From an uncultured Bacilli bacterium (lineage in GTDB: Bacteria; Bacillota_I; Bacilli_A; RF39; UBA660), in contig CALVUX010000008.1 of assembly GCA_944363715.1 (NCBI GenBank), forward strand, positions 2,928 to 66,927: DNA of 64,000 nucleotides. Direction: 5' to 3'. Each line of letters starts with the position of its first letter. The stretch's first letter is position 1. The translations under genes and the position numbers were made by a program. This document shows positions 405 to 58,330 of the stretch, piece by piece. The notes below the pieces were generated by a model, which saw only the letters and a program-made list of their open reading frames with translations, made no database searches and was not told the DNA's origin.

Positions 405-758
405 AGTGTTTGCATAAATGTAATAATTATGATAAGATGTATATGTAAGAAAAATTTTCATACACTATAAAAGGAACACTTAATATTGTCGTGTTGAGTG
501 TACCTCTAATTATATTTTTGTTAGAGACACCTAATTCAATAGTTGTGAGTTAGGTGACTTTTTCTATATTAAGACTAAAAGTAGTAGCAAATTCTGAAAA
601 AGGATAATAATTACTAAAGATAAAATTAAAAAATCTTTCTTGTTCATTATTTCGACCTCCTTTCTGAGGCCACACCCAACTATTAAATGTTCCTTATAAA
701 TATAGTATCAAATTAATTTCTGTATAGCAAGAGAAAATGTAATAAATTAGTTACAAAT
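405..758 (-). repeat. Copy A of the ~355-bp type I TA-like module (reverse orientation)
   Basis: Near-identical stretches shared with 43237..43590 and 44463..44819, e.g. aaatgtaataaattagtt, ccaactattaaatgttcc, aaaaggaacacttaatatt. Hairpin cacctaa(N15)ttaggtg at 528..556. Confidence 0.8.
564..647 (-). CDS. Small hydrophobic peptide (27 aa, MNKKDFLILSLVIIILFQNLLLLLVLI); candidate type I toxin
   Basis: ATG preceded by the SD aaaggagg. Paralogous to the peptides at 43343 and 44567. Too short for the ORF track. Confidence 0.4.
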   Translation of the reverse strand: MNKKDFLILSLVIIILFQNLLLLLVLI

Positions 759-785
759 TTTCGTAATATTAGATGTGTTAAGGTA

Positions 786-1685: not shown

Positions 1686-1689
1686 TGAG

Positions 1690-2901: not shown

Positions 2902-3033
2902 TGATATGAGTAAAAAAAGAGGTGATATGTTATGAAAATTGTTGATAATCCATATAAAAAGGAATTTGTATTTGACTTATATAGTTGAATTTATCCTAAA
3001 TTTAAAGAATATGATAAGATAACTAGGAAGAAA

Positions 3034-4476: not shown

Positions 4477-4516
4477 ATATAATTGTTTGTTTTGTGTTAT
4501 ACTAAAATAGGAAAGG

Positions 4517-5902: not shown

Positions 5903-5989
5903 GTAAATAAACTTATGCTTTTTTTAAACTCTACTATTAGTGGGTGTAAATTTTAGATATTATTTTATATTCTTTATGTAAGAAAGAGA

Positions 5990-6778: not shown

Positions 6779-6811
6779 TAAGATAACTTTAATATGTTAT
6801 CTTATTTTTAG

Positions 6812-7318
6812 GTGATGTGTATGAATAAGATATATTTAATAGCAGATACACACTTTAATCATGGTAATATAATTAAATACTGTAATAGACCTTTTAGTGA
6901 TATAGAAGAGATGAATAATACTATTATTAATAATTGGAATAGTGTTGTGGATAAAGGTGATATCGTTTATCATTTAGGAGATTTTATTTTAGGTGATAAT
7001 ATAAGTGACTTTGTTAGTAAACTTAATGGAAAAATCTATTTAGTAAGAGGTAATCATGATGGTAAATCAATAAATTTTTATAATAATATTGGTTTAGAAG
7101 TTGTTCCTACTAAGACTAAGCTAGAAGAATATAAAATTATATTATCTCATAGACCTTTAGAAAATAATCAGATACCTGATGGTTATATTAATATACATGG
7201 ACATATTCATAATGCTAAGTTGGATGATTCTTTTGATTCTAATAAACATAAGTGTGTATCAGTAGAAGTTATTGATTATATGCCAATAGAAATTGAAAAG
7301 GTTAGGAAAGAGGTATAG
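6812..7318 (+). CDS. Metallophosphoesterase (calcineurin-like, YfcE/MJ0936 type)
   Basis: IADTHFNHGN, GDF and GNHD motifs. Confidence 0.75.
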   Translation: MMCMNKIYLIADTHFNHGNIIKYCNRPFSDIEEMNNTIINNWNSVVDKGDIVYHLGDFILGDNISDFVSKLNGKIYLVRGNHDGKSINFYNNIGLEVVPTKTKLEEYKIILSHRPLENNQIPDGYINIHGHIHNAKLDDSFDSNKHKCVSVEVIDYMPIEIEKVRKEV

Positions 7319-7320
7319 TT

Positions 7321-8064
7321 ATGAGTGAAGATGAATTATTTGCAGAAGATATGAGAAATGCAATGCTTAATATGAGGAGATATATTTTAAATAGCAAACC
7401 TCATATTAAGAAATATAATCATTATAGAAAGGTTCATGCTGATATTTTAGAGAGTATGGCTTCATATGTTTTTAATGGTAAATATGATTTTGGTAAATAT
7501 ATAGATGAATTAAATAAGGATAGAGAAGATAGTAGTTTTGAAAATTTAAAGGGCTTTGATCTATCTTCTGATAATCCTGATGATGTATCTATAATTGCTG
7601 AACTATTTGTGTATAAGAATTTAAAAGAAGTGCCTTCAGTTACAGAGATATATTTAGAAAAAAATAAATTTAAAAATGCAGATAAAGTTAAATTGTTAAA
7701 GGCAATGAATGAGTCTTATGTAGGATTATTTAAAGTAACTGACATAGATTTTGATAATGCTTATGTTACTTATGAAGATGTATTTACTCATAAAAAGTTT
7801 AAAGTAATTGATATTTCTATGAGTGCATTTTCTAAAGTTGATGATGATAATCCTATTTACATGTATAATAGAGTTATTACAGTAGATGGGATATCTTTTG
7901 GTACTGGTATTCATTGTAATCTTAGTTATAAGAATAAAGAGTTTAGAAAATTTCTTAAAGAACATGATTATAATGAGAGTACAGATTTTTTTAGATGTCT
8001 TACATTATATGAAATATCTAAAAAAACAAAAGATAAAGGAGTCCGTTATAATACTCAGTTTTAA
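7321..8064 (+). CDS. Hypothetical protein; intact paralogue of the interrupted gene at 9715..10485
   Basis: ~50-60% identity with the two halves of 9715..10485 along its full length. Confidence 0.6.
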   Translation: MSEDELFAEDMRNAMLNMRRYILNSKPHIKKYNHYRKVHADILESMASYVFNGKYDFGKYIDELNKDREDSSFENLKGFDLSSDNPDDVSIIAELFVYKNLKEVPSVTEIYLEKNKFKNADKVKLLKAMNESYVGLFKVTDIDFDNAYVTYEDVFTHKKFKVIDISMSAFSKVDDDNPIYMYNRVITVDGISFGTGIHCNLSYKNKEFRKFLKEHDYNESTDFFRCLTLYEISKKTKDKGVRYNTQF

Positions 8065-9714: not shown

Positions 9715-10485
9715 ATGGATGATGTTTTAGAAAGAATACTTGCTAATTTTAGTGAAGAAGATAGAGCTAGACTTTTCTTTAATGCAAGACAGTATCAATT
9801 AAATAGAAAGGCTCATATTAAAAAGTATAATAAATTTAGAAAATTACAGAGTGAAGTTATTGATAGTATGGAAAACTATATTTTAGATGGTAAATATGAT
9901 ATAAATAAATATCTTAAAGATATGACTAGTAAAGTTAATTTTGATAAATTAAAAGATAAGAGATTTTTTAATTTCGATTATGATGATCCTGATGATAGAA
10001 CAATATTAGACGAACTATTTATCTATAAAAATATTGAAGGTATACCTTCAGTAACTGAGATATATTTAGAGAAGAATAAACTTAGAAATGAGGATAAAGT
10101 TAAGATGTTAAATGCTATGAATAATTCTTATGTAAGTTTATTTTAAATAGTTGGTGTTGATAGAGAAGATGCTTATGTAATATATGAAGATGTTTTTACT
10201 AAAAAGAGATATAAGATTATAGATATTGCTATGAGTGGATCTGTTATAATAGATAAGAAAAGACCAATATATTATTATAATAGAATAATTACTATTGATG
10301 GTATATCTTATGGTACTGGTATTCATTGTATTATGACTGGTGATAATAAAGAGTTAATTAATTTTATTAAGAAACATGATTATAAAAAGAGTCCTGATTT
10401 TTATAGATGTTTAATGTTATATGCTATATCTAAAAAAGAAGAAAATATGGAAGTTAGTTATAATAATAGGTATGGTTATAGATAG
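9715..10485 (+). pseudogene. Paralogue of 7321..8064 interrupted by a single in-frame TAA at 10144..10146 (or stop read-through)
   Basis: ORFs 9715..10146 and 10231..10485 share one frame. Homology to the intact paralogue runs across the stop (YVGLFKVTDIDFDNAY versus YVSLF*IVGVDREDAY). Confidence 0.6.
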
Positions 10486-12427: not shown

Positions 12428-14062
12428 ATGAATGAGCGAATAGTGACAGGTGTTGTTGTAGATGCTGGACATGGAGGTGCTGATCCTGGTGCTGTTTCTT
12501 CTGGTTTACAAGAGAAAGATTTTACATTAGATGCATCTTTATATATGTATGAAAGGTTACAACAGTTAGGGATACCTGCTGTTTTAACAAGAGATTCTGA
12601 TGAAAACTTAAGTAGAACGGAAAGACTTAGACGGGCTAATGAGGCTTTTGGAGGTAGTAGTAATGCTATACTTATATCTAATCATATAAATGCTGGAGGT
12701 GGAGAAGGAGCAGAGGTTATTTATGCTTTACGTAATAATTCTACTTTAGCCCAGTCTATCTTAGAAGAGATAGGTAGTGAAGGACAAATTATGCGTAAGT
12801 ATTATCAAAGAAGACTTCCTGAAGATCCATCTAAAGATTATTATTACATCATTAGAGAGACTGCTCCTATGCAATCTTTACTTGTTGAATATGGTTTTAT
12901 TGATAATGCTAATGATAGGGTTAAGTTGCAAAATGATTTATTAAATTATGTAGAAGCAGTTGTTAGAGCGATTGCAGGGTATGCTGGTGTTCCTTATACT
13001 CCTCCCGAAGGAAGTGGTACTAATTTTTATACTGTAGTTAAAGGTGATAGTCTATGGACTATAGCTCGTAAATTCGGTGTTACAGTACAACAGTTAAGAG
13101 ATGCTAATAATTTAACAAGTGATACTCTTACTGTTGGTCAACTTCTTAGAATTCCTACTAGTGGTGGTACTGATAATGGAACTGGAGGAAATGTTACTTA
13201 TACTGTGCAAAGAGGAGATAGTCTTTGGAGTATTGCAAGTCGTTATGGAATAAGTGTTAATGATTTAAGACGTGCAAATAATCTTACAAGTGATACTCTT
13301 AGTATAGGACAAGTTTTAATTATTCCTGGTGTTGGTAATGGTAATGATGATAATGATAATATAACAGGGCCTTCTACTACTTATACAGTACAAAGAGGAG
13401 ATAGTTTATGGAGTATTGCTAACCGTTTTGGAGTTACTGTACAACAATTAAGAGATGCTAATAACTTAACAAGTGATACTTTAAGTATAGGGCAAGTCTT
13501 AACTATACCTGGTGTTAGTGGAGAAGATGATGGTGAGAGTGATAATGATGGTGCAGTGTTCTATTACACAGTTGAACGAGGTGATAGTCTTTGGAGTATA
13601 GCTCGTAAATTTGGTATTACTGTACAAGAGATAAGAGATGCTAATGATTTAGTTAGTGATACTTTAAGTGTAGGACAATCTTTAATAATACCTGGTCTTA
13701 GTGCAGGCGATGATTTAGAAGATGATAATAATAATGAAACTAATCCTTCTACTTATACAGTTCAATCAGGTGACAGTTTATGGAGTATTGCTAATAAATT
13801 TGGTGTTACTGTCAATGATTTAAAGAATGCTAATGGATTAACATCTAATCTTCTTTCTATAGGACAAGTATTAATTATTCCTAGTTCTAGTACTAATAAT
13901 CCAACTAATCCTAGTTATACAACATACACAGTACAAAGAGGAGATAGTCTTTGGAGTATAGCTAATAACTTTGGTGTTACTGTTGATGCTATTAAGACGT
14001 TAAACAATTTGACATCTAATTTACTTTCTGTTGGTCAAGTATTACAAATACCTAATAATTGA
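12428..14062 (+). CDS. N-acetylmuramoyl-L-alanine amidase (Amidase_3) with six C-terminal LysM repeats
   Basis: VVVDAGHGGADPGAVS amidase_3 N-terminus. Six LysM units of the form YTVQRGDSLWSIA...VGQVL.IP. Confidence 0.85.
   Translation: MNERIVTGVVVDAGHGGADPGAVSSGLQEKDFTLDASLYMYERLQQLGIPAVLTRDSDENLSRTERLRRANEAFGGSSNAILISNHINAGGGEGAEVIYALRNNSTLAQSILEEIGSEGQIMRKYYQRRLPEDPSKDYYYIIRETAPMQSLLVEYGFIDNANDRVKLQNDLLNYVEAVVRAIAGYAGVPYTPPEGSGTNFYTVVKGDSLWTIARKFGVTVQQLRDANNLTSDTLTVGQLLRIPTSGGTDNGTGGNVTYTVQRGDSLWSIASRYGISVNDLRRANNLTSDTLSIGQVLIIPGVGNGNDDNDNITGPSTTYTVQRGDSLWSIANRFGVTVQQLRDANNLTSDTLSIGQVLTIPGVSGEDDGESDNDGAVFYYTVERGDSLWSIARKFGITVQEIRDANDLVSDTLSVGQSLIIPGLSAGDDLEDDNNNETNPSTYTVQSGDSLWSIANKFGVTVNDLKNANGLTSNLLSIGQVLIIPSSSTNNPTNPSYTTYTVQRGDSLWSIANNFGVTVDAIKTLNNLTSNLLSVGQVLQIPNN
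13020..14050 (+). repeat. Intragenic tandem LysM-encoding DNA repeats (~6 units)
   Basis: Repeated nucleotide blocks, e.g. caaagaggagatagtctttggagtat... . Local GC is higher than the surroundings. Confidence 0.7.
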
Positions 14063-41005: not shown

Positions 41006-41093
41006 TTTTGTATTTTTTGGAGTTGTACTCCAAATTTGTATAAATAATTTACTTCTTAAGATACGTATGATATACTTTTAGTAGAGGTAGATT

Positions 41094-42266
41094 ATGAGAA
41101 AGATAAGAATTGTATTTTTAACCTGTTTATGTTTATTAGTAGTAGGATGTGCTAATCCTTTTGTAGAAAGTAATGATATGACAAGTGTTTCTACTTTTAG
41201 TGGAGACACTTTAAGAGTTAATTATATTGATGTAGGACAGGGAGATTCTATATTTATACAACTTCCTAATAATGAAACTATGTTAATTGATGCAGGGGAA
41301 GTTTATAAGAGCGAAAATGTTATTAACTATCTTAATAATTTAGGTATTAAAAAGATAGATTATGTTGTTGGTACTCATCCTCATACTGATCATATTGGAG
41401 GATTAGAAGAAGTTATTAATACTTTTGATATAGGTTCTATTTATATGCCTAGAGCTAGTTCTACTAGTAAGACTTATCTTGATTTACTTACTGCTATTAG
41501 TAATAAAGGCCTTAAAGTTAAGACTGCTAAGAGTGGAGTAGTTGTTCTTGATGATGATAATTTAAAACTAGAGTTTATCGCTCCTAATAGTGATAATTAT
41601 AGTGAGTTAAATAATTATTCTGCTGTTTTAAAACTTACTTATTTAGATAATACTTTTCTATTTATGGGTGATGCAGAAACTTTAAGTGAAAACGAAGTAA
41701 CTTGTAATGTTGATGCAGACGTTATTAAAGTAGGTCATCATGGAAGTGATTCTTCATCAGGAATAGAATTTGTTAAGAAGGTAAGTCCAGAGTATGCTAT
41801 TATTATGGTGGGAGAGGGTAACTCTTATAATCATCCTTATCAGTCTATTATAGATAGATATGAAAATGTTGGAGCGAAGGTACTTAGAACTGATTTAGAT
41901 GGTAACATTGTTTGTGATAGTGATGGTGTGGATGTTACTTGTAAAGGCGATAAAGATTCTAGTAGTAATAGTAGTTCTAGTGCTGCTGCTAGTAATATAA
42001 ATCTTGTTAGTTTAACATCTCCTATTAGTAGAGGAAGTGATGTTACTGTTAGTATTAAAGGGCTTCCTAATACTACTTATGATATAGATGTAATCTATTC
42101 TAGTGGAGAGAGTAAAGCAAGTGGCCTTGAAGATAAAACTAGTGATAGTGAAGGTAATGTTAGTTGGACTTTTAAAGTTAGTAGTAATGTTAAGCCTGGT
42201 ACTTATGAAGTTAAAATTACTGATGGAGAAGATAGTGCTAGTTATAGTTTAGAGGTGACTGATTAA
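41094..42266 (+). CDS. ComEC/Rec2-related MBL-fold hydrolase lipoprotein with a C-terminal beta-sandwich domain
   Basis: Lipobox LLVVGC, then YIDVGQGDSIFIQ, HPHTDHIGG and VGHHGSDSSS. Confidence 0.75.
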   Translation: MRKIRIVFLTCLCLLVVGCANPFVESNDMTSVSTFSGDTLRVNYIDVGQGDSIFIQLPNNETMLIDAGEVYKSENVINYLNNLGIKKIDYVVGTHPHTDHIGGLEEVINTFDIGSIYMPRASSTSKTYLDLLTAISNKGLKVKTAKSGVVVLDDDNLKLEFIAPNSDNYSELNNYSAVLKLTYLDNTFLFMGDAETLSENEVTCNVDADVIKVGHHGSDSSSGIEFVKKVSPEYAIIMVGEGNSYNHPYQSIIDRYENVGAKVLRTDLDGNIVCDSDGVDVTCKGDKDSSSNSSSSAAASNINLVSLTSPISRGSDVTVSIKGLPNTTYDIDVIYSSGESKASGLEDKTSDSEGNVSWTFKVSSNVKPGTYEVKITDGEDSASYSLEVTD

Positions 42267-42460
42267 TGGAAGTAATTGTTGATAGAATTGAAGGAGATTA
42301 TGCAGTTGTGGAAATAGATAAAGGTAAGATGTGTAATTTACCAATAGAGGTAGTTCCTAATGTTAAAGAAGGGGACATTGTTACTATAATTATTAATAAA
42401 GATAAAACTGAAGAGAGAAAAAAGACTATAGAAGAGCTTATGAATAGCGTTTTTGAATAA
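42266..42460 (+). CDS. DUF3006 protein
   Basis: VDRIEGDYAVVEID...EGDIV motif. Typically paired with the preceding MBL gene. Confidence 0.6.
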   Translation: MEVIVDRIEGDYAVVEIDKGKMCNLPIEVVPNVKEGDIVTIIINKDKTEERKKTIEELMNSVFE

Positions 42461-42496: not shown

Positions 42497-43145
42497 ATGG
42501 AATTATATTTATCATCATATAGATTAGGAAATAGTCAAGATAAATTACAGGAATTGGTTATTAAATAATGGTAATAAAATACTTGTTATTCCTAATGCTT
42601 TAGATATGTTTGAAGACAATGAAAGAAAAATGCAGGGAATATTGAATAAGTGTAGTGATTTGCAAAAAATTGGTTTTGAAACTGAAATATTTGATTTAAG
42701 AAAATATTTTGGTAAAAGTGAAGATTTATATAGTGATATAAAAGATTATAAAGCGTTTTATGCATTGGGTGGTAATACTTTTGTACTAAGAACTGCGATG
42801 AAATTGAGTGGCTTTGATGAATATTTGAAAAAGATTTCTACTTTACCTGATTATTTATATTCAGGGTTTAGTGCAGGTATTTGTGTTTTAGCAAAAGATT
42901 TACATGGTATAGACTTTGTTGATGATCCTCATAAAGATCCATATAATTATGGAGAAATAATATGGGATGGAGTTGGTCTTATAGATTATATGCCTGTTCC
43001 ACATTTTGATACACCAAGTCATCCTGAATCATATTTAATGTATGATGTTGTTTCTTATTTAAAAGAAAATAATTTGCCATATATTACTATGAAAGATGGA
43101 GATGTTATTACCGTGAAAATTGATACTAAAGTTAAAAGAGTCTAG
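42497..43145 (+). pseudogene. Peptidase S51 (peptidase E-like), frameshifted near 42545..42555
   Basis: The N-terminal 23 codons (MELYLSSYRLGNSQDKLQELVIK*) are in one frame. The rest (NWLLNNGNKILVIPNA...YSGFSAG) is in another. Both parts match the peptidase E N-terminus/core. Confidence 0.6.
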
Positions 43146-43236
43146 GTATTTAGGCTCTTTTATAATAAAGTTTATATATAACATGATTATTTTCAATAAT
43201 ATAATTAGAAACTATTTTCTATTTGCGGGAATTCGC

Positions 43237-43590
43237 AACTAATTTATTACATTTTTCTTGATATATAGAAATTAATATGATACTATATTTGTAGGAACAT
43301 TTAATAGTTGGGTGGATATCTCCTAGAAAGGAGATTGATATTATGAATAGAAAAGATTTATTAATAGTCTCTTTAATCATAATTATCCTTTTACTTATAA
43401 AGTTATTATTTTTAGCGATATAAATAAAAGCCACCTAACTCACAACTGTTGAATTAGGGGCTAATCCATAATATAAAAATTTGGAGGTCCACTCAACATG
43501 GGAATATTAAGTGTTCCTTTTCATATTGTATGAATTTTTCTTACAAATATACTATATCATAGTTATTACATTTATGCAAATTTATTTTTA
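43237..43590 (+). repeat. Copy B of the ~355-bp type I TA-like module
   Basis: Collinear with copy C (44463..44819) and, as reverse complement, with copy A (405..758). Confidence 0.85.
43343..43423 (+). CDS. Small hydrophobic peptide (26 aa, MNRKDLLIVSLIIIILLLIKLLFLAI); candidate type I toxin
   Basis: SD aaaggag sits in the 3' arm of the hairpin atctcc/ggagat. Two paralogues exist in the window. Confidence 0.4.
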   Translation: MNRKDLLIVSLIIIILLLIKLLFLAI

Positions 43591-43621
43591 CTTACATGAT
43601 ATTATTTAAATAAATATAATG

Positions 43622-44344
43622 TTATGATAGACTTCTATTTGTAATATCTGCTCTTTCTCTTTGATTTAGACCATAACAACTAACTGGTGTTAAATTATTA
43701 TTCTTATCTTTTACAAAAACATCAGTAAATCTATAAAAGTTATCACTTGTATTATCGTAGAATACAAAGTTAATGTCGCCTGTACTTGTAACTAGACATG
43801 CTGTAAGTTCTGCCTGTTTAGTCTTAAACACTTGATTATCTTGATTCATTTAAATATAGCTAGTGAAATCGTCTAGAGAAAAGTTTTCACTAAAACTTCC
43901 TCTTGGGTGGGAATGTCCGTGACAGACAACAAAACCATTATATCGGTTATTATTAAGTTTATTTACTAAATCATTTCTCATATTTTCATCATAATTTGCT
44001 TCTGCTCTTTGTCTATTATCTCTTGAGCTTGATGCAATAAAACTATCAAATTCTATTACATTGTTTTCAACTTCTTTTCCATATAGGAAAAATGGTACTT
44101 CTTTTTTCTCTATATTGGTAACATCTTGTACTCCTAACAAAGATCCATATACTTCTTCACTTAATATTATTTTTGAGTTTGGCATATTATTTATAATATC
44201 AGAATTAATTGGAGTCATTTCTCCATAAGCACTATATGTATTGAAGTTTTGTTGATGGTAAGCTCCGTAAGGATTTTTATGAATCATAATGTCTTTTACT
44301 TTTTGTGAGTATTGTTCTCTAGTCATAATTATTTTTCCTTTCAA
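43622..44344 (-). pseudogene. RadC-like JAB/MPN-domain protein interrupted by an in-frame TAA (ORFs 43850..44344 and 43622..43849 abut as ...TSYI*MNQ...)
   Basis: HGHSHPRGSFSENFSLDD resembles the RadC JAMM motif HNHPSG...S..D. The two ORFs are contiguous in one frame. Confidence 0.4.
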
Positions 44345-44462
44345 TGTTTTATTAATAGTTATATTGTCAATAATTCTATCTAATAATTATTTTAGCATAA
44401 TTCTTTCATTTTCGGTATTGTATATTTAATAATAAAAAAATGATATATTTACGAAAACCTGT

Positions 44463-44819
44463 AACTAATTTATTACATTTTTCCTTGTTATCTAGAAATT
44501 AATATGATACTCTATATGTAGGAACATTTAATAGTTGGGTGGGACCTCAGAAAGGAGGTCTAGCTAATGAACAAGAAAGATTATTTGATTTTTTCTTTAG
44601 TAGTTATGTTGTTTCTTCAAGATATCTTGTTGCTATTTGCCATACTTGCTTTAAAATGAAAGAAACCGCCTAACTTACAACTGTTGGATTAGGTGGCTCT
44701 CGAAAAATAATTAGGGGTCCACTCAACATGCGAATATTAAGTGTTCCTTTTAATATTGTATGAATTTTTCTTACAAATATACTATATCATAATTATTACA
44801 TTTATGCAAATTTATTTTT
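44463..44819 (+). repeat. Copy C of the ~355-bp type I TA-like module
   Basis: See copy B. Confidence 0.85.
44567..44659 (+). CDS. Small hydrophobic peptide (30 aa, MNKKDYLIFSLVVMLFLQDILLLFAILALK); candidate type I toxin
   Basis: SD aaaggagg sits in the 3' arm of the hairpin gacctc/gaggtc. Confidence 0.4.
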   Translation: MNKKDYLIFSLVVMLFLQDILLLFAILALK

Positions 44820-45807
44820 GTATAACTAGTGATACATCTTTAAAGTAATAATTTAATATCTGTTTATAGTTATAACCTAACTCTGATAGATTATCTGCCC
44901 CTATAATACTTAGACCTAGTCCACTACCTATTCCTCTTGTTATGAAAGTAAGATAATCTTTCTTGATAATTATAGTAATGTCTGTTGAAGGTAAATCTAA
45001 ATAGACTGCTAGACTTCTGGCATCTATTTTTCTTTCTCCTAAGTCTAATTCTTTTATTCTGTTAGAGTTACTGATACTAGTAATCTTTATATTAAAATTA
45101 TCACTTTTTAGATTTAATTTTTCTTTAAAATCTTTAATACTGTAGTCTTTTCTTTGTAAATAATTAGGGTATGCTAAATCCCAGAGACTTTCTTTTTTTA
45201 CAGTATAAGGAATACTTTTATCTTCTTCGGTGTAGCCATTACTAACTAAGTGGGTAAAACATTTAATGGGTTTATTATTATTAATTAAATACTCGCCATT
45301 AGTTTCATCTATTACTTTATTAAAAATAGTAAATTTAGATTTATAAGTTTCAGGATAAGTAACTTTATAATAATTATAGTTATGATATGATAAAGATAAT
45401 TTATTTAAGTCTAAATAATTATTCTTTAGATTATAGATTATTTCTCCTCTGTATAAAACTGTTAAAGCTTTTAGAGTTTCTTCTTTTAAAGAGATATTTA
45501 TATTACATAATAATAAACTTAATAGTAGGTCTTTCATAGTCATTTTTTCTTTAGTATTAAGAGTAATTAAATAATCATTTAAGTAAGTCTTGTTATTTTC
45601 GATAGTAATCATTTTAGTACTAATACCATTTACAATAAAAACAATTTTATTACCATTAAATTTAATATCATGAGTAACTAAATAACTTCTAGCTTTCTTT
45701 TCTAAGTCATCTTCCTCTAAATCTTCACCAAATTCATAATCAACATTTAAATATAAGTATAATACTTCTTCATTATTACTTCTTGCAATTTTATAACTTT
45801 CTAACAT
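44812..45807 (-). CDS. SpoIID/LytB-domain protein (putative)
   Basis: The C-terminal RGIGSGLGLSIIGADNLSELGYNYKQILNYYFKDV resembles the SpoIID C-terminal block GHGVGMSQ.GA..MA..G..Y..IL..YY. Confidence 0.45.
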   Translation of the reverse strand: MLESYKIARSNNEEVLYLYLNVDYEFGEDLEEDDLEKKARSYLVTHDIKFNGNKIVFIVNGISTKMITIENNKTYLNDYLITLNTKEKMTMKDLLLSLLLCNINISLKEETLKALTVLYRGEIIYNLKNNYLDLNKLSLSYHNYNYYKVTYPETYKSKFTIFNKVIDETNGEYLINNNKPIKCFTHLVSNGYTEEDKSIPYTVKKESLWDLAYPNYLQRKDYSIKDFKEKLNLKSDNFNIKITSISNSNRIKELDLGERKIDARSLAVYLDLPSTDITIIIKKDYLTFITRGIGSGLGLSIIGADNLSELGYNYKQILNYYFKDVSLVIQK

Positions 45808-45846
45808 ATTATCACCTATTTATATAGTGATATGTTAGATTTAATT

Positions 45847-46821
45847 TTATTCAAAATATTTTAATTTATTTTTGTTATCACAGTTTTTTCCTGTTAGGTA
45901 TGAGTAATTTTTAAAGACATTCTTTAAATTAATCTTTTTAGTGTCTTTTAAATAACTATTAACATCAGTTATCATTTTTTTTGCATCTTTTAGAGCGATA
46001 GAATATAGTTCAATAAAAGATTCATTATGTTTTTCACGTTTTAGACTAGGGTGAGTCCAAGTACTATGATTAGCATTTAAATAGTTAAATTCATCTTTTA
46101 ATGGGGTATGATATGATACTGCTTGTAACTTAAAAGTCTTATCACTAGTAAATTTATCTATAGTTTTATAACAGAACATTTTTATTCCATATTTATCATA
46201 TCTTAAATATTTTAAAGCTTTGTACATATCTTTTAATGATTTGTAATAATATTTAGAAAAGTCATTAAAATTAAAAGTCTCTTTAAAAGCATAATCTATT
46301 ACTTCTATTAACTCTTTTGAGAATGGTTTTAAGTCAAAAGTAAAATCATAGAACTTAAAACTATATGGTGTTATGAATTCTTTTTGTTTAATCATGTAAT
46401 TATCTAGAAAGTTTTCCATATATTCATGTTTATTTCTATATTTGTAAGTATTAGGATTACTTTCGTCTACTATACCTGTTTTATAAATTATATATGGATG
46501 AAGCTTAGAGTCTAGACAGTAATGAGCGATGAAGCCATATAGAAAAGCCATTACTTCACTATTTTGATAATAATTATTATACTTTATATAATTAACTAAA
46601 TTAATAAAAAAATCTCTTGATTTATTTGTATGAAAATATCCTTGAAAGTCTCTTATATGTTTATCTTTCTTCTTAAGTAGATTATAAAAAATAAAAGAAT
46701 CTGTACTTTGGGAGAACATTCTTAATCTCTTTTTTTCATCCATTAATAACTTTTTTAGACCAATAGGAAGTATGTCATAAAGGTCATTTGCAAAGTAAGC
46801 ATGAGTAACAGTTGCAGGCAT
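45847..46821 (-). CDS. Zinc-dependent phospholipase C-like family protein (putative)
   Basis: N-terminus TVTHAYFANDLYDIL and conserved H/D positions recalled for the PF00882-like family. Confidence 0.45.
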   Translation of the reverse strand: MPATVTHAYFANDLYDILPIGLKKLLMDEKKRLRMFSQSTDSFIFYNLLKKKDKHIRDFQGYFHTNKSRDFFINLVNYIKYNNYYQNSEVMAFLYGFIAHYCLDSKLHPYIIYKTGIVDESNPNTYKYRNKHEYMENFLDNYMIKQKEFITPYSFKFYDFTFDLKPFSKELIEVIDYAFKETFNFNDFSKYYYKSLKDMYKALKYLRYDKYGIKMFCYKTIDKFTSDKTFKLQAVSYHTPLKDEFNYLNANHSTWTHPSLKREKHNESFIELYSIALKDAKKMITDVNSYLKDTKKINLKNVFKNYSYLTGKNCDNKNKLKYFE

Positions 46822-46931
46822 AGTCTAAAATCAATCCTTTCTACTTTTTAAAGTATAACATAATTTTTCATTAAATTATCATATTTTTTACATAATTTTT
46901 GTGATATAATCTATTCTAGGTGAGGAAGAAG

Positions 46932-47900
46932 ATGATAGATAAGCAGTTTAAGAATCTTGAAGAACAAATAGAAATACTTAAATATAAGGGTATGACTATT
47001 ACAGATGAAAAATATACTAAGAAGATATTACTAAGAGAAAATTACTTCTTTATATCTGGTTATAGATATCCTTTTATGAGAAGTATGACTGATAAACATT
47101 TCTTAGAAGGGGTTACTTTTGAAGAGATGTATAGTTTGTTTCTATTTGATAGAGCGATTAGAAATGTGTTCTTTAAGTATTTACTTGTTATTGAAAATAA
47201 CTTAAAATCTATATTTTCATATCAGTTATCTAAGAAATATGGATATAAAGAGAAATATTATTTGCGTAATAAAAACTTTACTAATGATAAGAATAAACAA
47301 AAACAAGTAAATGATTTGATTAAAAAGATGAAAAGACAAATTAGGATTAATGGAAGTCAACATACAGCGACTGCACATTATATGTCTAATTATGGTTATG
47401 TTCCACTTTGGATTTTAGTTAAAGTTTTATCTTTTGGAATAGTTGGAGAATTATTTTCAATAATGAAATATGATGATCAAGTAAATATTTGTAAGATTTA
47501 TAATATACCATTAGATGATTTTAGTAATTATTTACCAATACTTTCTAATTATCGTAATTTGTGTGCTCATGAAGATATTTTATATGAAAATAGAACTCAG
47601 AAGAAAATTAAAGGAACGAAGTTTCATGAGTTACTTGGTTTAGAAAAAGATGATGAAGGGTACTATACTAAAGGAACTAATGATTTATTTGCCCTTCTTA
47701 TTATAATGAAGAGAATGTTAAGTTATGATGAATTTAAAGATATGTGTTTAGAGCTTGATAAAAGAATAGATAATCTTGAATATAATTTGCATAGTATTAA
47801 AATAGATAAAATATTAGAAAAAATGGGGTTTCCTAAAAATTATATGGAACTTGCTAATATTGAGAGGAGAGATGTAGATAATGAAGTCAGAGAGAATTAA
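46932..47900 (+). CDS. Abortive-infection protein, Abi_2 (AbiD/AbiF/AbiD1) family
   Basis: Family hallmarks: EQIEILKYKGMTI, YFFISGY, FLFDRAIRN, IENNLKS, YVPLWILVKVLSFG and the invariant YRNLCAHED. An extended -10 TGaTATAAT lies upstream at 46903..46910. Confidence 0.75.
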   Translation: MIDKQFKNLEEQIEILKYKGMTITDEKYTKKILLRENYFFISGYRYPFMRSMTDKHFLEGVTFEEMYSLFLFDRAIRNVFFKYLLVIENNLKSIFSYQLSKKYGYKEKYYLRNKNFTNDKNKQKQVNDLIKKMKRQIRINGSQHTATAHYMSNYGYVPLWILVKVLSFGIVGELFSIMKYDDQVNICKIYNIPLDDFSNYLPILSNYRNLCAHEDILYENRTQKKIKGTKFHELLGLEKDDEGYYTKGTNDLFALLIIMKRMLSYDEFKDMCLELDKRIDNLEYNLHSIKIDKILEKMGFPKNYMELANIERRDVDNEVREN

Positions 47901-49008
47901 AGAAGCGGTACTTATAATTGTATCATTTGTTATAGGTGGAGTTTTGACTTTTGTAATTATAGGGGGAGAAGATTTAATTAATAATAATAGTAGTAGTTCT
48001 TCTACAAATAGTGGCTTAACTTGTAGTGCAGCTGATTGTACAAAAGTAGTTGTAGATGAGTCTGGTATTAGTGAAGCGGTTGAGAAAGTTTATGATGGAG
48101 TTTTGATGGTTAGAAATTATCAAAATGATGAAGTAGCTTCTACAGGTACTGGGTTTGTTTATAAAATAGATGGGGATAATGCTTATGTTATGACTAATCA
48201 ACATGTTGTAGAAGGTGCTGATAGGGTAACTTTAATTACTTCTAATGATGAAGAGGTTGAAGGAGAAGTATTAGGTGGAGATACTTATGTTGATATTGCA
48301 ATTGTTAGAATTAAGAAAGTTGATAGTCTAGTTGCTTTACAACTTGGTAATAGTGAAAATGCTAGTCTAGGAGATTTAGTATTTACAGTTGGTAGTCCTT
48401 TAGGTTATGAATATAGAGGTAGTGTTTCTACTGGCCATTTAGCAGGTAAAGATAGATTAGTTAGTGTTAGTACTGGAAATACTTCTAGTAGTGATTGGGT
48501 TATGAAAGTATTACAAACTGATGCAGCGATTAATCCTGGTAACAGTGGTGGACCTTTAATGAATACTAATGGTGAAGTTATTGGCGTTATTTCTATGAAA
48601 CTTGTTCAAACAGAAGTTGAAGGTATGGGATTTGCTATTCCTATAGAATATATTAATAGTAAGATTGAAACTCTAGAAAAAGGTGAATTTATAGAGTGGC
48701 CATTACTTGGTGTATCTATGATTAATGTTAGTGATGCTAAGGGGTCTTATAGATATAATTTTGATATTCCTAATGATATAGATAGTGGAGTTGTAGTTGC
48801 AGGAATAGAAAGTGGAAGCGGAGCGGCTGATTCTGACCTTAAAGAAGGAGATATTATTACTAAACTTAATGGAGAAGAAGTAGCAGATTCTGCATATTTA
48901 AGATATGAGCTTTACAAATATTCTGTAGGTGATACAATAGAGATAACTTATATAAGAGATGGTAAAGAACATACAACTAAAGTTACTTTAAGTAGTAGTA
49001 ATGATTAG
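47881..49008 (+). CDS. htrA: HtrA/DegP-family serine protease with PDZ domain
   Basis: N-terminal TM helix, catalytic triad regions TNQHVV, D..IAIV and GNSGGPL, C-terminal PDZ. Confidence 0.85.
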   Translation: MKSERIKEAVLIIVSFVIGGVLTFVIIGGEDLINNNSSSSSTNSGLTCSAADCTKVVVDESGISEAVEKVYDGVLMVRNYQNDEVASTGTGFVYKIDGDNAYVMTNQHVVEGADRVTLITSNDEEVEGEVLGGDTYVDIAIVRIKKVDSLVALQLGNSENASLGDLVFTVGSPLGYEYRGSVSTGHLAGKDRLVSVSTGNTSSSDWVMKVLQTDAAINPGNSGGPLMNTNGEVIGVISMKLVQTEVEGMGFAIPIEYINSKIETLEKGEFIEWPLLGVSMINVSDAKGSYRYNFDIPNDIDSGVVVAGIESGSGAADSDLKEGDIITKLNGEEVADSAYLRYELYKYSVGDTIEITYIRDGKEHTTKVTLSSSND

Positions 49009-50499: not shown

Positions 50500-52638
50500 T
50501 TGATGTACATGAAGGATATTATGATTGTAAAAAGAAATGGTAATTTGGAAAAGTTTGATCCTGAACGAGTTAGGAAAGCAGTTAGAAGTAGTGCTGAACG
50601 TGTTATGGTTGATTTAACTGATGATGCTATGAATAAAATTGTTAATAAAGTAGTGGAGCTTTTAGAAACACAGACAAGTAATCCTACTGTTGAACAAGTA
50701 CATAGTTGTTGTGAAGTAGCACTTGAATCTATTAATCCTTTGGTTGCAAAGAGTTATAGAGAGTATAGAGATTATAAGAAAGATATTGTTCATATATTAG
50801 ATGAAGTCTATAAAAAGAGCCAGGTTATTACTTATATAGGTGATAAAGATTGTGCTAATATGGATAGTGCTTTGGTTACGACGCAGAGATGTTTAATATA
50901 TAATAGTCTTAATAAAGAATTATATAAGAAATTCTTTTTAACTAGTGCTGAAATAGAGGCTTGTAAAGATGGTTATATCTATATTCATGATATGAGTGCA
51001 AGACGTGATACGATGAATTGTTGTTTGTTTGATATTGCTAATGTCTTAAAAGATGGGTTTGAGATGAGTAATATTTGGTATACAGAGCCTAAAACATTAC
51101 AAACAGCTTTTAATGTTATAGGGGATGTTACTATTAATACTACTGCAATGCAGTATGGTGGGTTTACTCTTCCAGAGATTGATACTGTATTAAAGAAATA
51201 TGCTAAGAAAAGTTATGATATGTATTATAAAGAGTATTTAAATATTAAAGGTAAAGATTATGCTTCTGAAGCGGAGGATTATGCTTGGAAGAAGACAGTT
51301 AGAGAATGTGAACAGGGTTATCAGGGATTTGAATATAAACTAAATACTGTTTCATCTAGTAGAGGAGATTATCCTTTTGTTACTCTTACTTTTGGAGTAG
51401 ATAAAGATAAGTTTGCAGTTATGATTACTAAGACTATATTAGATGTACATAGAGAAGGTCAAGGTAAGAAAGGGTTTAAGAGACCTACTGTATTTCCTAA
51501 GTTAGTATTTTTATATGATAAGAAAGTGCATGGTGAAGGGGGAGAGTTAAGAGATAGTTTTCTTACTGCTATTAAATGTAGTGAGAAGACAATGTATCCT
51601 GATTATTTATCATTATCAGGAGAAGGTTATGTTCCAGAAATGTATAAGAAATATAAGAGAATTGTTAGTCCTATGGGGTGTCGTGCATTTCTTTCTCCTT
51701 GGTATGAACGTGGGGGAATGGAACCTGTTGATAAAGATGATAAACCTGTTTTTATTGGAAGGTTTAATATAGGGGCAATATCTTTACATTTACCTATGAT
51801 ACTTGCTAAAGCTCGTGAAGAACAGAAAGACTTTTATGAAGTGCTTGATTATTACTTAGAGATGATTCGTAGGATTCATATTCGTACTTATCGATATCTA
51901 TCTAAACGTAAAGCTTCTACTAATCCTTTAGCTTACTGTCAAGGAGGTTTTTATGGAGGTAATTTGAAGCCAGAAGAGCCTATTGAACCTATTTTGAAAA
52001 GTTCTACAGCATCTTTTGGTATTACGGCTTTAAATGAATTACAAGTTCTATATAATGGTAAGAGTATTGTTGAAGATGGATCTTTTGCTCTTGAAGTTAT
52101 GAAATATATTAATAAGAAGACTACTGAGTTTAAAAAAGAAGATAATATTCTTTATGCTATATATGGAACACCAGCTGAGAGTTTATGTGGTCTTCAAATA
52201 AAACAATTCCGTAAAAAATATGGTATTATTCCTGGAGTTAGTTCCCGTGAATATGTTTCTAACAGCTTTCATTGTGGTGTTTGGGAAGATATTAGTGGTA
52301 TAGAAAAACAAGACTTGGAAGATAGATTTTGGGAACTATTTAAAGGGGGTAGAATACAGTATGTTCGTTATAATTTAAGTTATAATACTAAAGCAATGCT
52401 TACTTATGTAGAAAGAGCGATGGACAAAGGCTTTTATGAAGGTGTTAATCTTTCACTTGCTTACTGTAATAACTGTGGCCATGAAGAATTAGATATGGAT
52501 GTTTGTCCTAAGTGTGGAAGTAGTGATTTAACAAAGATAGATAGAATGAATGGATACCTTTCTTACTCAAGAGTTCATGGTGATACAATGCTTGGTAATG
52601 CAAAGATGGTAGAAATTTCAGAAAGGAAATCTATGTGA
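50500..52638 (+). CDS. nrdD: Anaerobic ribonucleoside-triphosphate reductase (class III), copy 1, with fused glycyl-radical C-terminus
   Basis: ATP-cone N-terminus, C-terminal Zn ribbon CNNCG...CPKCG, then RMNGYLS...NAK. Confidence 0.85.
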   Translation: MMYMKDIMIVKRNGNLEKFDPERVRKAVRSSAERVMVDLTDDAMNKIVNKVVELLETQTSNPTVEQVHSCCEVALESINPLVAKSYREYRDYKKDIVHILDEVYKKSQVITYIGDKDCANMDSALVTTQRCLIYNSLNKELYKKFFLTSAEIEACKDGYIYIHDMSARRDTMNCCLFDIANVLKDGFEMSNIWYTEPKTLQTAFNVIGDVTINTTAMQYGGFTLPEIDTVLKKYAKKSYDMYYKEYLNIKGKDYASEAEDYAWKKTVRECEQGYQGFEYKLNTVSSSRGDYPFVTLTFGVDKDKFAVMITKTILDVHREGQGKKGFKRPTVFPKLVFLYDKKVHGEGGELRDSFLTAIKCSEKTMYPDYLSLSGEGYVPEMYKKYKRIVSPMGCRAFLSPWYERGGMEPVDKDDKPVFIGRFNIGAISLHLPMILAKAREEQKDFYEVLDYYLEMIRRIHIRTYRYLSKRKASTNPLAYCQGGFYGGNLKPEEPIEPILKSSTASFGITALNELQVLYNGKSIVEDGSFALEVMKYINKKTTEFKKEDNILYAIYGTPAESLCGLQIKQFRKKYGIIPGVSSREYVSNSFHCGVWEDISGIEKQDLEDRFWELFKGGRIQYVRYNLSYNTKAMLTYVERAMDKGFYEGVNLSLAYCNNCGHEELDMDVCPKCGSSDLTKIDRMNGYLSYSRVHGDTMLGNAKMVEISERKSM

Positions 52639-55999: not shown

Positions 56000-58330
56000 A
56001 TGACAGGAGTAAATGAATTAAATGAAGAATTAGAAGGTGTTACAGTAATTAAAAGAAATGGTAAAAAAGTAGACTTTGATGGAGCGAAAATAGCTTTAGC
56101 CATAAAAAAAGGTTTTGATAGTGTTGAAGTAGATGATGATGAGAGCGAAAAAGAAAAGAAATATAACTTTTCTGATATTCAAAAAGTATATAGTGCAGTT
56201 TTAAAAAAAATAAAGAAAGATGCAGAAGAAAAAAATAATCGCTTTAAAATTGAAGAGATTCAAGACTATATAGAAACAGAATTATCTAGTAAAGGATATG
56301 AAGATGTATATAAATCATTTTCTGAATATAGAGAAAGAAGAAATCAGTCAAGAGAATCTTTCTTTGGAGATAATAAGACTCATAAGTTCTTAAAATCATT
56401 AGAGAATCTTGGGCTTAAGTCTGCTAATGAAGAAGATGCAAAACGTGAAAATGCTAATATTGATGGAAATAGTCCAATGGGTACGATGTTACAATATGGT
56501 GCGACTGTATCTAAAGAATTTTCTAAAGCATACTTAATGAAAAAAGAATATGCAGAAGCTCATGATAATGGAACAATTCATATTCATGATATGGACTTCT
56601 TAGCAATGGGTACTACTACTTGTTGTCAGATAGATTTAGCAAGACTATTTAAAAATGGTTTTGATACAGGACATGGATATGTTAGACCACCTCAAGATAT
56701 TTCAACTTATGCATCACTTGCTTGTATCGTTATTCAAGCTAATCAAAATGATCAACATGGAGGACAAGCAATACCGGCACTTGATTATTATCTTGCACCA
56801 GGTGTACTTAAAACATTTAAAAAACAGTTTAAACAAACAATTTATGATTTTCTTGATTTAGAAGGATTTATTCCAGGTATTAATATAGATAGAATTGTTA
56901 GAGAAATAGATAAACAAGAATCAATTGAATTTGATATTAAAGAATTTAGTGATTATAAGAAAGGCTCTAGTAGAGTTCATGAAATATTTGAAAAGAGTTA
57001 TCTTAAAGCAATGCAAAAAACTGATAGAGCGACTGAACAAGCTATGGAAGCATTTATTCATAATTTAAATACAATGCATTCTAGAGCAGGTGCACAAGTT
57101 CCATTTTCATCAGTTAACTTTGGAACAGATATAACTCCAGAAGGTAGAATGGTAGTTAAGAATTTCTTACTTTCTTTAGATAGAGGTCTTGGAAAAGGAG
57201 AAACACCAATCTTTCCAGTATCAATATTTAAAGTAAAAGAGGGAGTTAATTATAATAAGGAAGATCCTAACTATGATTTATTTAAACTTGCTTGTAAGGT
57301 ATCTGCTAAAAGACTTTTCCCTAACTTTGCTTTTGTAGATGCTCCATTTAATAAGCAATATTATAAAGAAGGAGACTTTAATACAGAGATTGCTTATATG
57401 GGTTGTAGAACAAGAGTAATAGGGGACATTACTAGTCCAGATAATGAGATAGTAACTGGTCGTGGTAATTTATCTTTTACTACTATTAACTTACCAAGAT
57501 TAGGCATTAAATATGGTATAGCTTTAAAAGAAAGAGATAAGGCAGATATGGATGGGTTCTATAAAGAACTTGAGAGTATCATGGATATGGTTAAAGATCA
57601 ATTACTTGAAAGATTTGAAGTTCAGTGTAGTAAACATAGTTATAACTTCCCATTCTTACTTGGACAGGGTATTTGGACTAATGGCGAGAAGTTAAAACCA
57701 ACTGATAGACTTAGAAAAGTATGGAAACATGGTACTTTATCTACAGGATTTATTGGACTTGCAGAATGTTTAAAAGCTTTAACTGGTAAACATCATGGTG
57801 AAAGTGAAGAAAGTGAAAAGTTAGGTTTAGAAATCATTACATTTATGAGAAAACGTTGTGATGAGTATTCTCGTAAATATAACTTAAACTTTACTTGTCT
57901 TGCTACTCCTGCAGAAGGATTAAGTGGTAGATTTACAGGAATTGACAGAGCGATATATGGAAAGATTAAAGGTGTTACTGATAGAGAATATTATACAAAT
58001 TCATTCCATGTACCAGTTTATTATAATATAAGTATTACTGATAAGATTGAGAAAGAGGCACCTTTCCATGGACTTACTAATGGAGGACATATTTCTTATA
58101 TTGAGTTAGATGGTGATGCTGCTTCTAATGTTGAGGCATTTGAGAAAGTAATTCGCGTTATGAAAGAAGCAGGTATTGGATATGGTGCGATTAACCATCC
58201 AGTTGATAGAGATCCTGTTTGTGGATATGTTGGAGTAATTAATGATGTTTGTCCTAAATGTGGACGTCATGAATTTGAAGGGGTTCCAATGGAAGTAATA
58301 ACTTCATTAGATAGTAATTGTTGTGAATAA
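56000..58330 (+). CDS. nrdD: Anaerobic ribonucleoside-triphosphate reductase (class III), copy 2, large subunit lacking the glycyl-radical tail
   Basis: ATP-cone and NrdD core. It ends just after the Zn ribbon (VCGYVGVINDVCPKCG...SNCCE*). Confidence 0.9.
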   Translation: MTGVNELNEELEGVTVIKRNGKKVDFDGAKIALAIKKGFDSVEVDDDESEKEKKYNFSDIQKVYSAVLKKIKKDAEEKNNRFKIEEIQDYIETELSSKGYEDVYKSFSEYRERRNQSRESFFGDNKTHKFLKSLENLGLKSANEEDAKRENANIDGNSPMGTMLQYGATVSKEFSKAYLMKKEYAEAHDNGTIHIHDMDFLAMGTTTCCQIDLARLFKNGFDTGHGYVRPPQDISTYASLACIVIQANQNDQHGGQAIPALDYYLAPGVLKTFKKQFKQTIYDFLDLEGFIPGINIDRIVREIDKQESIEFDIKEFSDYKKGSSRVHEIFEKSYLKAMQKTDRATEQAMEAFIHNLNTMHSRAGAQVPFSSVNFGTDITPEGRMVVKNFLLSLDRGLGKGETPIFPVSIFKVKEGVNYNKEDPNYDLFKLACKVSAKRLFPNFAFVDAPFNKQYYKEGDFNTEIAYMGCRTRVIGDITSPDNEIVTGRGNLSFTTINLPRLGIKYGIALKERDKADMDGFYKELESIMDMVKDQLLERFEVQCSKHSYNFPFLLGQGIWTNGEKLKPTDRLRKVWKHGTLSTGFIGLAECLKALTGKHHGESEESEKLGLEIITFMRKRCDEYSRKYNLNFTCLATPAEGLSGRFTGIDRAIYGKIKGVTDREYYTNSFHVPVYYNISITDKIEKEAPFHGLTNGGHISYIELDGDAASNVEAFEKVIRVMKEAGIGYGAINHPVDRDPVCGYVGVINDVCPKCGRHEFEGVPMEVITSLDSNCCE

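Follow-up and report, generated by a model that had tools for sequence, protein, structure and literature searches.

Two unrelated things appeared to lie side by side between 43.2 and 47.9 kb of the DNA analyzed here, a 64,000-nt stretch of an uncultured Bacilli bacterium (assembly GCA_944363715.1, contig CALVUX010000008.1, positions 2,928 to 66,927 of the forward strand; this whole stretch is called the window). One is a variable hotspot, occupied by short repeated modules that resemble toxin-antitoxin (TA) systems of type I; the other is an adjoining core block, inherited vertically, in which an Abi_2 (AbiD/AbiF family) gene, here called abi2, directly precedes htrA. The probability of this two-part reading was put at about 0.78. 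The first-pass annotation had described the interval as one accessory islet, bracketed by module copies B and C and ending in the abortive-infection gene. The gene order that it gave was reproduced by open reading frame (ORF) listing, Pfam searches and repeat finding, and the features were as follows.

42497..43145, plus strand: S51 (PepE-like) peptidase pseudogene, frameshift near 42565-42605 (listed ORF 42606-43145)
43209..43589, plus strand: module B, class-2 type I TA-like unit, direct repeat with module C
43622..44326, minus strand: JAB/MPN+ (JAMM) metalloprotease-like gene, inactivated by a CAA-to-TAA change at 43850-43852 (ORFs of 158 and 75 aa)
44435..44819, plus strand: module C, class-1 type I TA-like unit, at the 3' end of the SpoIID-like gene
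44812..45807, minus strand: SpoIID/LytB-domain-like gene, 331 aa, sub-threshold profiles; first gene outside the hotspot, core
45847..46821, minus strand: Zn-dependent phospholipase C (PLC)-domain gene, 324 aa, Zn_dep_PLPC (PF00882) 36.4 bits against a cut-off of 26.8; core, co-oriented with the SpoIID-like gene
46852..46910, no single strand: compact divergent promoter region with two back-to-back extended -10 elements
46932..47900, plus strand: Abi_2 (AbiD/AbiF family) HEPN gene with motif RNLCAH, PF07751 142.7 bits; predicted first gene of an abi2-htrA operon
47881..49008, plus strand: htrA, membrane-anchored serine protease with Trypsin_2 and PDZ domains, its ATG overlapping the end of abi2 by 20 nt

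For comparison, one genome per species was anchored on HtrA alone, without selection on Abi, which gave 80 loci, the 80 best htrA matches among species-representative genomes; orthologues were sought in them by tblastn with the window proteins. The loci came from metagenome-assembled genomes of uncultured Bacilli (Candidatus Onthousia and relatives; 'Clostridium sp. CAG:451') from human, chicken, rabbit, mouse and ruminant guts, and one of the genomes was closed (1.52 Mb). HtrA identity to the window copy ranged from 96% down to 51%. By exact protein matches, the window itself was assigned to a scaffold from a gut metagenome. Labels such as L006 or L009 denote related genome loci or contigs compared with the window, and dN/dS was computed against 16 close species.

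When the relatives were compared for presence and absence, a check that the first-pass annotation had proposed, polymorphism was found for 42.46-44.82 kb and not for 44.81-47.90 kb, which proved to be core. The variable stretch is a convergent intergenic gap running from the DUF3006 gene to the stop codon of the SpoIID-like gene. Measured from the last plus-strand core gene (DUF3006 or amidase) to that stop codon, the gap ranged among relatives from 11-98 nt, where it is empty (L026, L028, L049, L032, L033, L038-L040, L048 and L050, among others), up to 3.5 kb. Gaps of 340-390 nt held exactly one module (L024, L027, L030), and the largest array, with up to four modules, occupied 3.5 kb in L036. 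On the other side of the boundary, an abi2 orthologue was located directly 5' of htrA in 80/80 loci, and the PLC-like/SpoIID-like pair lay divergently 5' of abi2 in about 62/80. The abi2 gene is thus not accessory, being conserved in every related genome examined. Because of this synteny, the supposed islet turned out to be core across the lineage as far as its Abi, PLC-like and SpoIID-like genes are concerned, the outcome that the first-pass annotation had itself set against its proposal. Its term 'cassette-like accretion' fits the 42.46-44.82 kb hotspot and not these three genes, which belong to the chromosome backbone; likewise, the JAB pseudogene is all that modules B and C bracket, with the SpoIID-like, PLC-like and Abi genes beyond them.

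It is highly improbable that the whole of 43.2-47.9 kb was accreted horizontally as an accessory or defence islet bounded by TA modules, with Abi_2 as its abortive-infection payload. The Abi_2 protein does match defence and phage libraries strongly, G+C content is lowest at 45-47.5 kb (20-25%), and relatives of the JAB gene are found on mobile elements. However, the Abi_2, PLC-like and SpoIID-like genes are syntenic in 62-80 of the 80 species and under purifying selection, the modules bracket the JAB gene only, and mobile Abi_2 homologues are at most 33% identical to the window protein. No tRNA was found in the window, and near the interval no gene for an integrase or recombinase came to light, though no scan aimed at such genes was made. 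The view of RadC-like JAB and Abi_2 genes as frequent members of mobile or defence islands was borne out here for the JAB family, but not for this Abi_2 gene, present as it is in all 80 relatives.

The membership of the window protein in the Abi_2 family is solid, judging from its profile matches. The PF07751 match (142.7 bits against a gathering score of 25.6) spans profile positions 2-183 of 184, PADLOC AbiD was matched with 200 bits and phrog_2158 with 234 bits, and PDB 8vz6, an 'Abi family protein', is a sequence relative (E 7e-18). The orthologues shared 59-97% identity with the window protein and had ORFs of 297-326 aa, and the HEPN motif Rx4H read RNLCAH in 78 sequences (77 of the 79 related loci that were scored, plus the window) and RNTCAH in the other 2. 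In the most distant genomes, Abi_2 was more conserved than HtrA, which fell to 51-57%; dN/dS was 0.127 for Abi_2, 0.197 for HtrA and 0.085 for NrdD. The htrA start overlapped the abi2 end in most loci, and overlap or near-adjacency was kept across the clade, the commonest offset being -19 nt by script, which matches the 20-nt overlap in the window and depends on how ends are counted. A start of abi2 at GTG 46920 was rejected, as the exact GTG-start protein has no database record, and the called start is ATG 46932.

The extended -10 element that the first-pass annotation had assigned to abi2 was recovered as TGATATAAT on the plus strand at 46902-46910, 21 nt before this ATG, and is the predicted promoter element of abi2-htrA, with a predicted leader of about 12 nt. 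Such an element (TGnTATAAT or TGnTATACT) was present 5' of the abi2 ATG in 81/81 sequences, 17-21 nt before it in most, and because of this retention the promoter is, on comparative grounds, real and ancient. Back to back with it, the minus-strand TGTTATACT at 46852-46860 is the predicted promoter element of the PLC-like and SpoIID-like unit, and the abi2-PLC-like intergenic gap was constant, at 91-118 nt, in most of the approximately 62 loci with the pair. The core block at 44.81-49.0 kb would therefore be, in the proposed mechanism, a vertically inherited unit with two opposed promoters, one for the SpoIID-like/Zn-PLC-like genes and one for abi2-htrA. The dN/dS values of the divergent genes were 0.083 (PLC-like) and 0.113 (SpoIID-like, syntenic in most of the 80 genomes). 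The name SpoIID-like is borderline: the scores approached the thresholds of TIGR02669 (82.5 against 83.3 bits) and PF08486 (21.8 against 23 bits) and stayed far from that of TIGR02870 (116.7 against 234.75 bits). The two extended -10 elements are separated by an A/T-rich block that contains TTCAT repeats and is conserved, TTTTCAT-N-AAAAATTCATATTTTTT (window and L006-L085); TTCAY-N6-WYCAT occurred there in 52/81 genomes. This block has the look of a direct-repeat site to which a regulator, either of abi2-htrA or of the divergent unit, would bind.

The Abi_2 family is a family of predicted HEPN RNases, to which the Rx4H motif has been assigned (PMC3710099). AbiF of a C. difficile prophage is toxic and is neutralized by an upstream RNA with abiF motifs, and chromosomal copies, of unknown function, are usually patchy in distribution (PMC12373285). 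With AbiD, AbiD1 and AbiF of Lactococcus plasmids and AbiF(Cd)-RCd22 of the C. difficile phi027 prophage, the window protein shares the full-length Abi_2 domain, the Rx4H motif (RNLCAH) and the form of a single gene of about 320 aa (PMC3710099, PMC12373285). Unlike them, the window gene is carried by no plasmid, prophage or defence island, occurs in 80/80 related species and overlaps htrA; its protein is 25-33% identical to plasmid-borne (300 records) and phage-borne (72 records) copies. No upstream abiF-motif RNA was found, neither at Rfam gathering scores in the window nor at E up to 10 in 46700-48100.

Because of universal retention, slow evolution and the lack of a known abiF RNA antitoxin motif, a resident cellular role of Abi_2, co-expressed with HtrA, was considered most likely, somewhat likelier than a fixed role in abortive infection. 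Abi_2, predicted to be an HEPN-type RNase, would share a transcript with htrA, probably with translational coupling between the two, and it may serve, for example, in stress or in RNA turnover, under joint regulation with envelope quality control. The competing explanation, a credible minority view, is that Abi_2 is a working abortive-infection gene fixed as resident immunity, a HEPN RNase that kills infected cells, with its htrA linkage incidental or a matter of co-expression only. This would agree with the full-length family membership and intact Rx4H motif, with the conserved strong promoter, which implies expression, and with experiments in which the family behaved as a toxic, phage-related RNase system (PMC12373285, PMC3710099). 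It agrees less well with the absence of patchiness, defence neighbours and abiF RNA antitoxin motif described above, or with the slower evolution of the Abi_2 protein relative to HtrA at depth, an uncommon pattern among arms-race genes. No report of an association of Abi_2/HEPN with htrA was found in a literature search.

Defence annotators would call the gene AbiD/Abi2, yet it is a slow-evolving core gene welded to htrA in every sampled relative. Censuses of defence genes in uncultured gut bacteria should take this as a warning, and the gene is a candidate for a non-defence or fixed-defence HEPN function. A bolder synthesis was weighed as well, less likely than not: that this lineage is no longer a mobile abortive-infection gene but a domesticated, essential-like RNase that would act together with HtrA, in a stress operon conserved throughout a clade of gut Bacilli with reduced genomes. 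Next to it would lie an uncatalogued family of type I TA systems, with conserved ends that make one intergenic gap a self-renewing recombination hotspot. If true, this would be the first core, operon-fixed Abi_2 lineage to be described.

On the variable side, modules B (43209-43589) and C (44435-44819) were verified as true direct repeats of about 380 nt. As the first-pass annotation had stated, they lie at the 3' ends of minus-strand units: the JAB gene stops at 43622, next to module B, and the SpoIID-like stop codon (44812-44814) falls inside module C. Together with an inverted third copy, module A, they aligned with 83% mean column identity, and a 26-nt module end motif was found 3 times in the window against 0.00 expected. 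Their parts were assigned as follows.

43223-43238: module B, insulating hairpin
43258-43286, plus strand: module B, toxin promoter TTGATA-17-TACTAT with upstream TG
43343-43423, plus strand: module B, toxin ORF (MNRKDLLIVSLIIIILLLIKLLFLAI)
43434-43458, minus strand: module B, antisense terminator hairpin, then a T-run
43551-43556 (-10) and 43574-43579 (-35), minus strand: module B, antisense promoter
44567-44659, plus strand: module C, toxin ORF (MNKKDYLIFSLVVMLFLQDILLLFAILALK)
44666-44697: module C, antisense terminator hairpin
44781-44786 (-10) and 44804-44809 (-35), minus strand: module C, antisense promoter
409..766, minus strand: module A, the third, inverted copy, located at a second site in the chromosome, with its toxin ORF at 564-647 (MNKKDFLILSLVIIILFQNLLLLLVLI)

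From left to right, each module contains a hairpin with a T-run, a toxin promoter with an extended -10, a Shine-Dalgarno (SD) sequence within a hairpin and a hydrophobic ORF of 25-31 aa; the right half contains a hairpin that terminates the opposite strand and, at the right edge, a convergent promoter (TTGCAT-17-TATAGT or TATGAT). For module B, the scan scored this predicted antisense promoter, which has a TG upstream, as TTTGCA-18-TATAGT, though TTGCAT-17-TATAGT is an equally good reading; the same promoter is predicted in C. Each antisense promoter of the three window copies comes after the stop codon of a gene that points the same way, so read-through from that upstream gene would add only antitoxin-sense RNA. 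Module A is placed between the end of an ABC-transporter gene and a gene at 786-1685, and modules occurred at the same place in the metagenome contigs L099 (2199-2609) and L102 (52-460).

A search with nhmmer gave 44 module matches, including the three window copies and a duplicate of the window's own contig. Within the related loci, modules were found in one orientation, at the hotspot only and in the closer Onthousia species only, at 0-4 per species. The alignment of 34 copies showed near-invariant promoter ends and a centre that falls into at least four classes. The antisense promoter block was near-invariant in 33/34 copies, the toxin ORF was intact in 31/34, and the class 1 and class 2 peptides of the aligned copies were identical or differed by one residue across species. 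The sole copy without the antisense promoter, L024 6589-6910, also lacks the toxin start codon (ATG to ATA), and this joint loss is what TA dependency predicts. The toxin mRNA of every class was predicted to fold with a 5'-3' closing helix of 14-28 bp and an SD hairpin (z = -3.5 for C); the outer helix was 97% paired, with compensatory changes at two positions.

No Rfam family was matched by the modules at gathering scores or at E up to 10, and the six toxin peptides searched had no significant match in Pfam. The end motif was absent from the viral contigs searched, and its 6 matches in metagenome contigs were all at the same two chromosomal sites. Set beside the general features of type I TA systems (PMC2887945), the modules are, as far as their predicted anatomy goes, a previously uncatalogued type I TA-like family. 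Each would encode a hydrophobic peptide of 25-31 aa from an mRNA closed by the long 5'-3' helix, with its SD buried in the hairpin. A convergent antisense RNA of about 120 nt, starting at the conserved far-end promoter, would overlap the 3' part of the toxin mRNA and presumably trigger its decay or block its translation.

Known comparisons are the 3'-overlapping type I systems txpA/RatA, bsrG/SR4 and bsrE/SR5, and par/Fst, which the modules resemble in the hydrophobic peptide and the convergent cis-antisense RNA over the 3' end of the toxin mRNA. A 5'-3' closing helix is also known from the hok and aapA1 mRNAs. Further likeness to type I TA systems of Bacillota lies in the sequestered SD, the long-range 5'-3' pairing and the tandem chromosomal copies, as predicted for the modules. 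The modules differ from the known systems in having no Rfam match by sequence or covariance model and no significant Pfam match, in combining near-invariant promoter ends with at least four interchangeable cores and, compared with Fst, in peptides without the charged C-terminal tail typical of the latter. The set thus offers a new type I TA-like family in comparative form, with at least four core classes, 40 or more copies and one natural case of 'toxin dead, antitoxin lost'.

That the repeats are no TA systems at all, but structured intergenic terminators or insulators with a chance short ORF, is rather improbable. They do sit in convergent gaps and contain terminator-like hairpins, and the lack of an Rfam or Pfam family would be expected as well. 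But an SD, a start codon and a hydrophobic ORF of 25-31 aa are kept in every class, and the peptides hardly differ between species; the convergent promoters are conserved more strongly than the ORF; SD sequestration and the 5'-3' helix are kept in every class; and L024 lost the antisense promoter and the start codon together.

The gene between B and C, called RadC/JAB-like and interrupted in the first-pass annotation, was found to be broken by a single in-frame TAA at 43850-43852, where six related species have CAA (Gln). Its minus-strand in-frame ORFs, of 158/164 and 75 aa, lie within 43622-44344. A search with the joined ORFs gave 215 homologues, nearly all of them single proteins of 230-234 aa without a Pfam domain. 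Because the window gene is 98-100% identical to that of L009, the nonsense mutation is, by this measure, recent. The JAMM motif E...HxH...S-x-x-D was recovered among 27 homologues, with E76, H138, H140 and S150 invariant and D153 in at least 90%; the window copy keeps HSHP...SLDD, and the stop follows 6 codons after the motif. Modelled with AlphaFold2 (pLDDT 86), the homologue P0001, which is intact and 98% identical, was matched by Foldseek to BubCD, CSN5, Rpn11 and PfJAMM1 (probability 1.00, E 2e-6 to 1e-4), and the MPN fold of the family is supported by this model, in which the nonsense codon would remove the C-terminal strands, five strands of the MPN core.

The JAB half of the first-pass name is thereby retained and the RadC half is not, as PF04002 was not matched and no RadC structure was among the 50 best fold matches. 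The family had no Pfam or NCBIfam match (JAB, Prok-JAB or RadC), and the matches to PADLOC JAB (E 0.003) and in a PDB profile search (E 0.78) were both weak. The conserved motif, the MPN fold and the occurrence of homologues in mobilizable elements are shared with the JAB/MPN+ isopeptidases (Rpn11, CSN5, PfJAMM1, the bacterial BubCD JAB domain and the RadC-like JAB of conjugative elements). Differently from these, the window family has about 232 aa with an N-terminal three-helix extension and no Pfam JAB/RadC match, no ubiquitin-like, E1/E2 or CBASS partner adjoins the gene here, and the window copy is truncated by a stop.

At the hotspot, the JAB gene occurred in only eight lineages. It was intact in five and broken in three ways in the others: by the nonsense codon in the window, by a frameshift in L011 and by truncation in L101. 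JAB relatives with 73% identity were found in integrative mobilizable elements, flanked by the genes of a Mob_Pre relaxase and a serine recombinase, and others in a different operon; no TA modules were found beside JAB in these elements. The element of L091-L096 (for example L091 3600-11762) contains the Mob_Pre relaxase, a 347-aa protein of unknown nature, JAB, helix-turn-helix regulators and the serine recombinase, in varied contexts such as beside an nSTAND3 gene or the S subunit of a type I restriction-modification system.

It is distinctly improbable that the window JAB gene is alive, with termination and reinitiation at TAA-ATG giving two pieces, one catalytic (158 aa) and one of beta-sheet (75 aa), that come together again as a split enzyme. 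The conserved Met160 of the family does stand immediately 3' of the stop, a truncated 158-aa form recurs in other samples (P0048, 23 member sequences), and the close identity to L009 and the lack of further disabling changes would fit as well. Against this, over 200 homologues consist of a single chain, the MPN core loses five strands through the break, and the different disruptions in L011 and L101 point to decay. The TAA-ATG junction had also been considered as a conserved two-gene operon, as tblastn matches in six species were split by exactly 3 nt, and was rejected because the homologues are single-chain and the relatives have CAA.

The second cargo gene, of the S51 peptidase, matched Peptidase_S51 with 46 bits at profile positions 56-199 of 206. 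Its N-terminus, MELYLSSYRLGN..., lies in another frame, and conceptual repair of the frameshift extended the match to positions 20-199 (52 bits). The gene was absent from every related locus examined; the equivalent position held a DinD-like gene or nothing. This DinD-like gene of 278 aa is hotspot cargo elsewhere (L018 5241-6077; L006 4393-5228; L008 1572-2322; L036 888-1364). Some species have it intact, others split or truncated, and because of this the hotspot cargo was seen to decay repeatedly. In L012 (4932-6963), a gene for an IS110-like transposase (400 aa) lies within a module, which as a result matches the hidden Markov model in two parts (positions 30-141 and 140-423). In distant relatives (L063, L064, L067, L073, L077, L085 and others; about 1500-6900 in each), the amidase and SpoIID-like genes have between them a conserved ORF of about 1530 aa and, after it, two shorter ORFs of 85 and 75 aa.

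The turnover of this gap would be explained as follows. The type I TA-like modules colonized the gap in which the amidase/MBL/DUF3006 unit and the SpoIID-like gene converge, and since these modules have near-identical ends, divergent cores and an arrangement as 1-4 direct repeats, homologous recombination could duplicate, delete and shuffle the DNA between them. That DNA would be decaying cargo, namely the JAB/MPN+ gene, from a family borne by mobile elements, and the frameshifted S51 peptidase gene. Direct repeats B and C probably drive the gain and loss of the JAB pseudogene between them, and such recombination fits the patchy distribution of JAB and the different module classes that flank it in each species. 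Mosaic divergence was observed when 43200-44400 and 41078-42460 of the window were compared with L009, L020 and L036: dS of the MBL gene was 0.02-0.06 against L036, L020 and L009, JAB was 98-100% identical to L009, and the flanking genes differed by 8-12%. Because of this mosaic, recent recombination between species around the hotspot is suggested by the sequences compared.

The locus resembles chromosomal hotspots or integration 'gaps' and integron-like cassette arrays in its fixed site between conserved genes, its variable cargo and its repeats in one orientation. It differs from these in that no attC site, tRNA or integrase was found here, the last not having been specifically scanned for, in that the repeats are themselves self-contained TA-like genes, and in a turnover that would proceed by homologous recombination. 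In this way, direct TA repeats may turn a convergent gap of a 1.5-Mb genome into a site where foreign genes arrive and decay.

Several points weigh against the two-part reading of a TA-like hotspot beside a core block. In the toxin mRNA helices, 7 pairs were changed on both sides, which is no more than in shuffles, and the inner helix covaries by class when examined by eye, but was misaligned in the joint alignment. The near-identical module ends could reflect gene conversion rather than constraint. Since the TAA of the JAB gene is directly followed by ATG, reinitiation may conceivably yield two JAB fragments. The abi2-htrA linkage was traced within the 80 sampled loci and no deeper; the searches with the window Abi_2 and with a 59%-identical orthologue listed the best 120 matches, which reached down to 68-70% identity. 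Core status may also be compatible with an active abortive-infection role of Abi_2. In addition, the organism is uncultured and known from metagenomes only, and all functions are predicted from sequence.

Other repeats and duplications were also observed in the window. A tandem array at 12999-13997 consists of 5-6 units of 171-189 nt with 61-75% identity, and a diverged duplicate pair lies at 7387-7854 and 9799-10266, about 2.4 kb apart; both are probably within coding sequence. Two paralogues of the anaerobic ribonucleotide reductase NrdD were found at 50500-52638 and about 56000-58330, with activase-like genes 3' of each.

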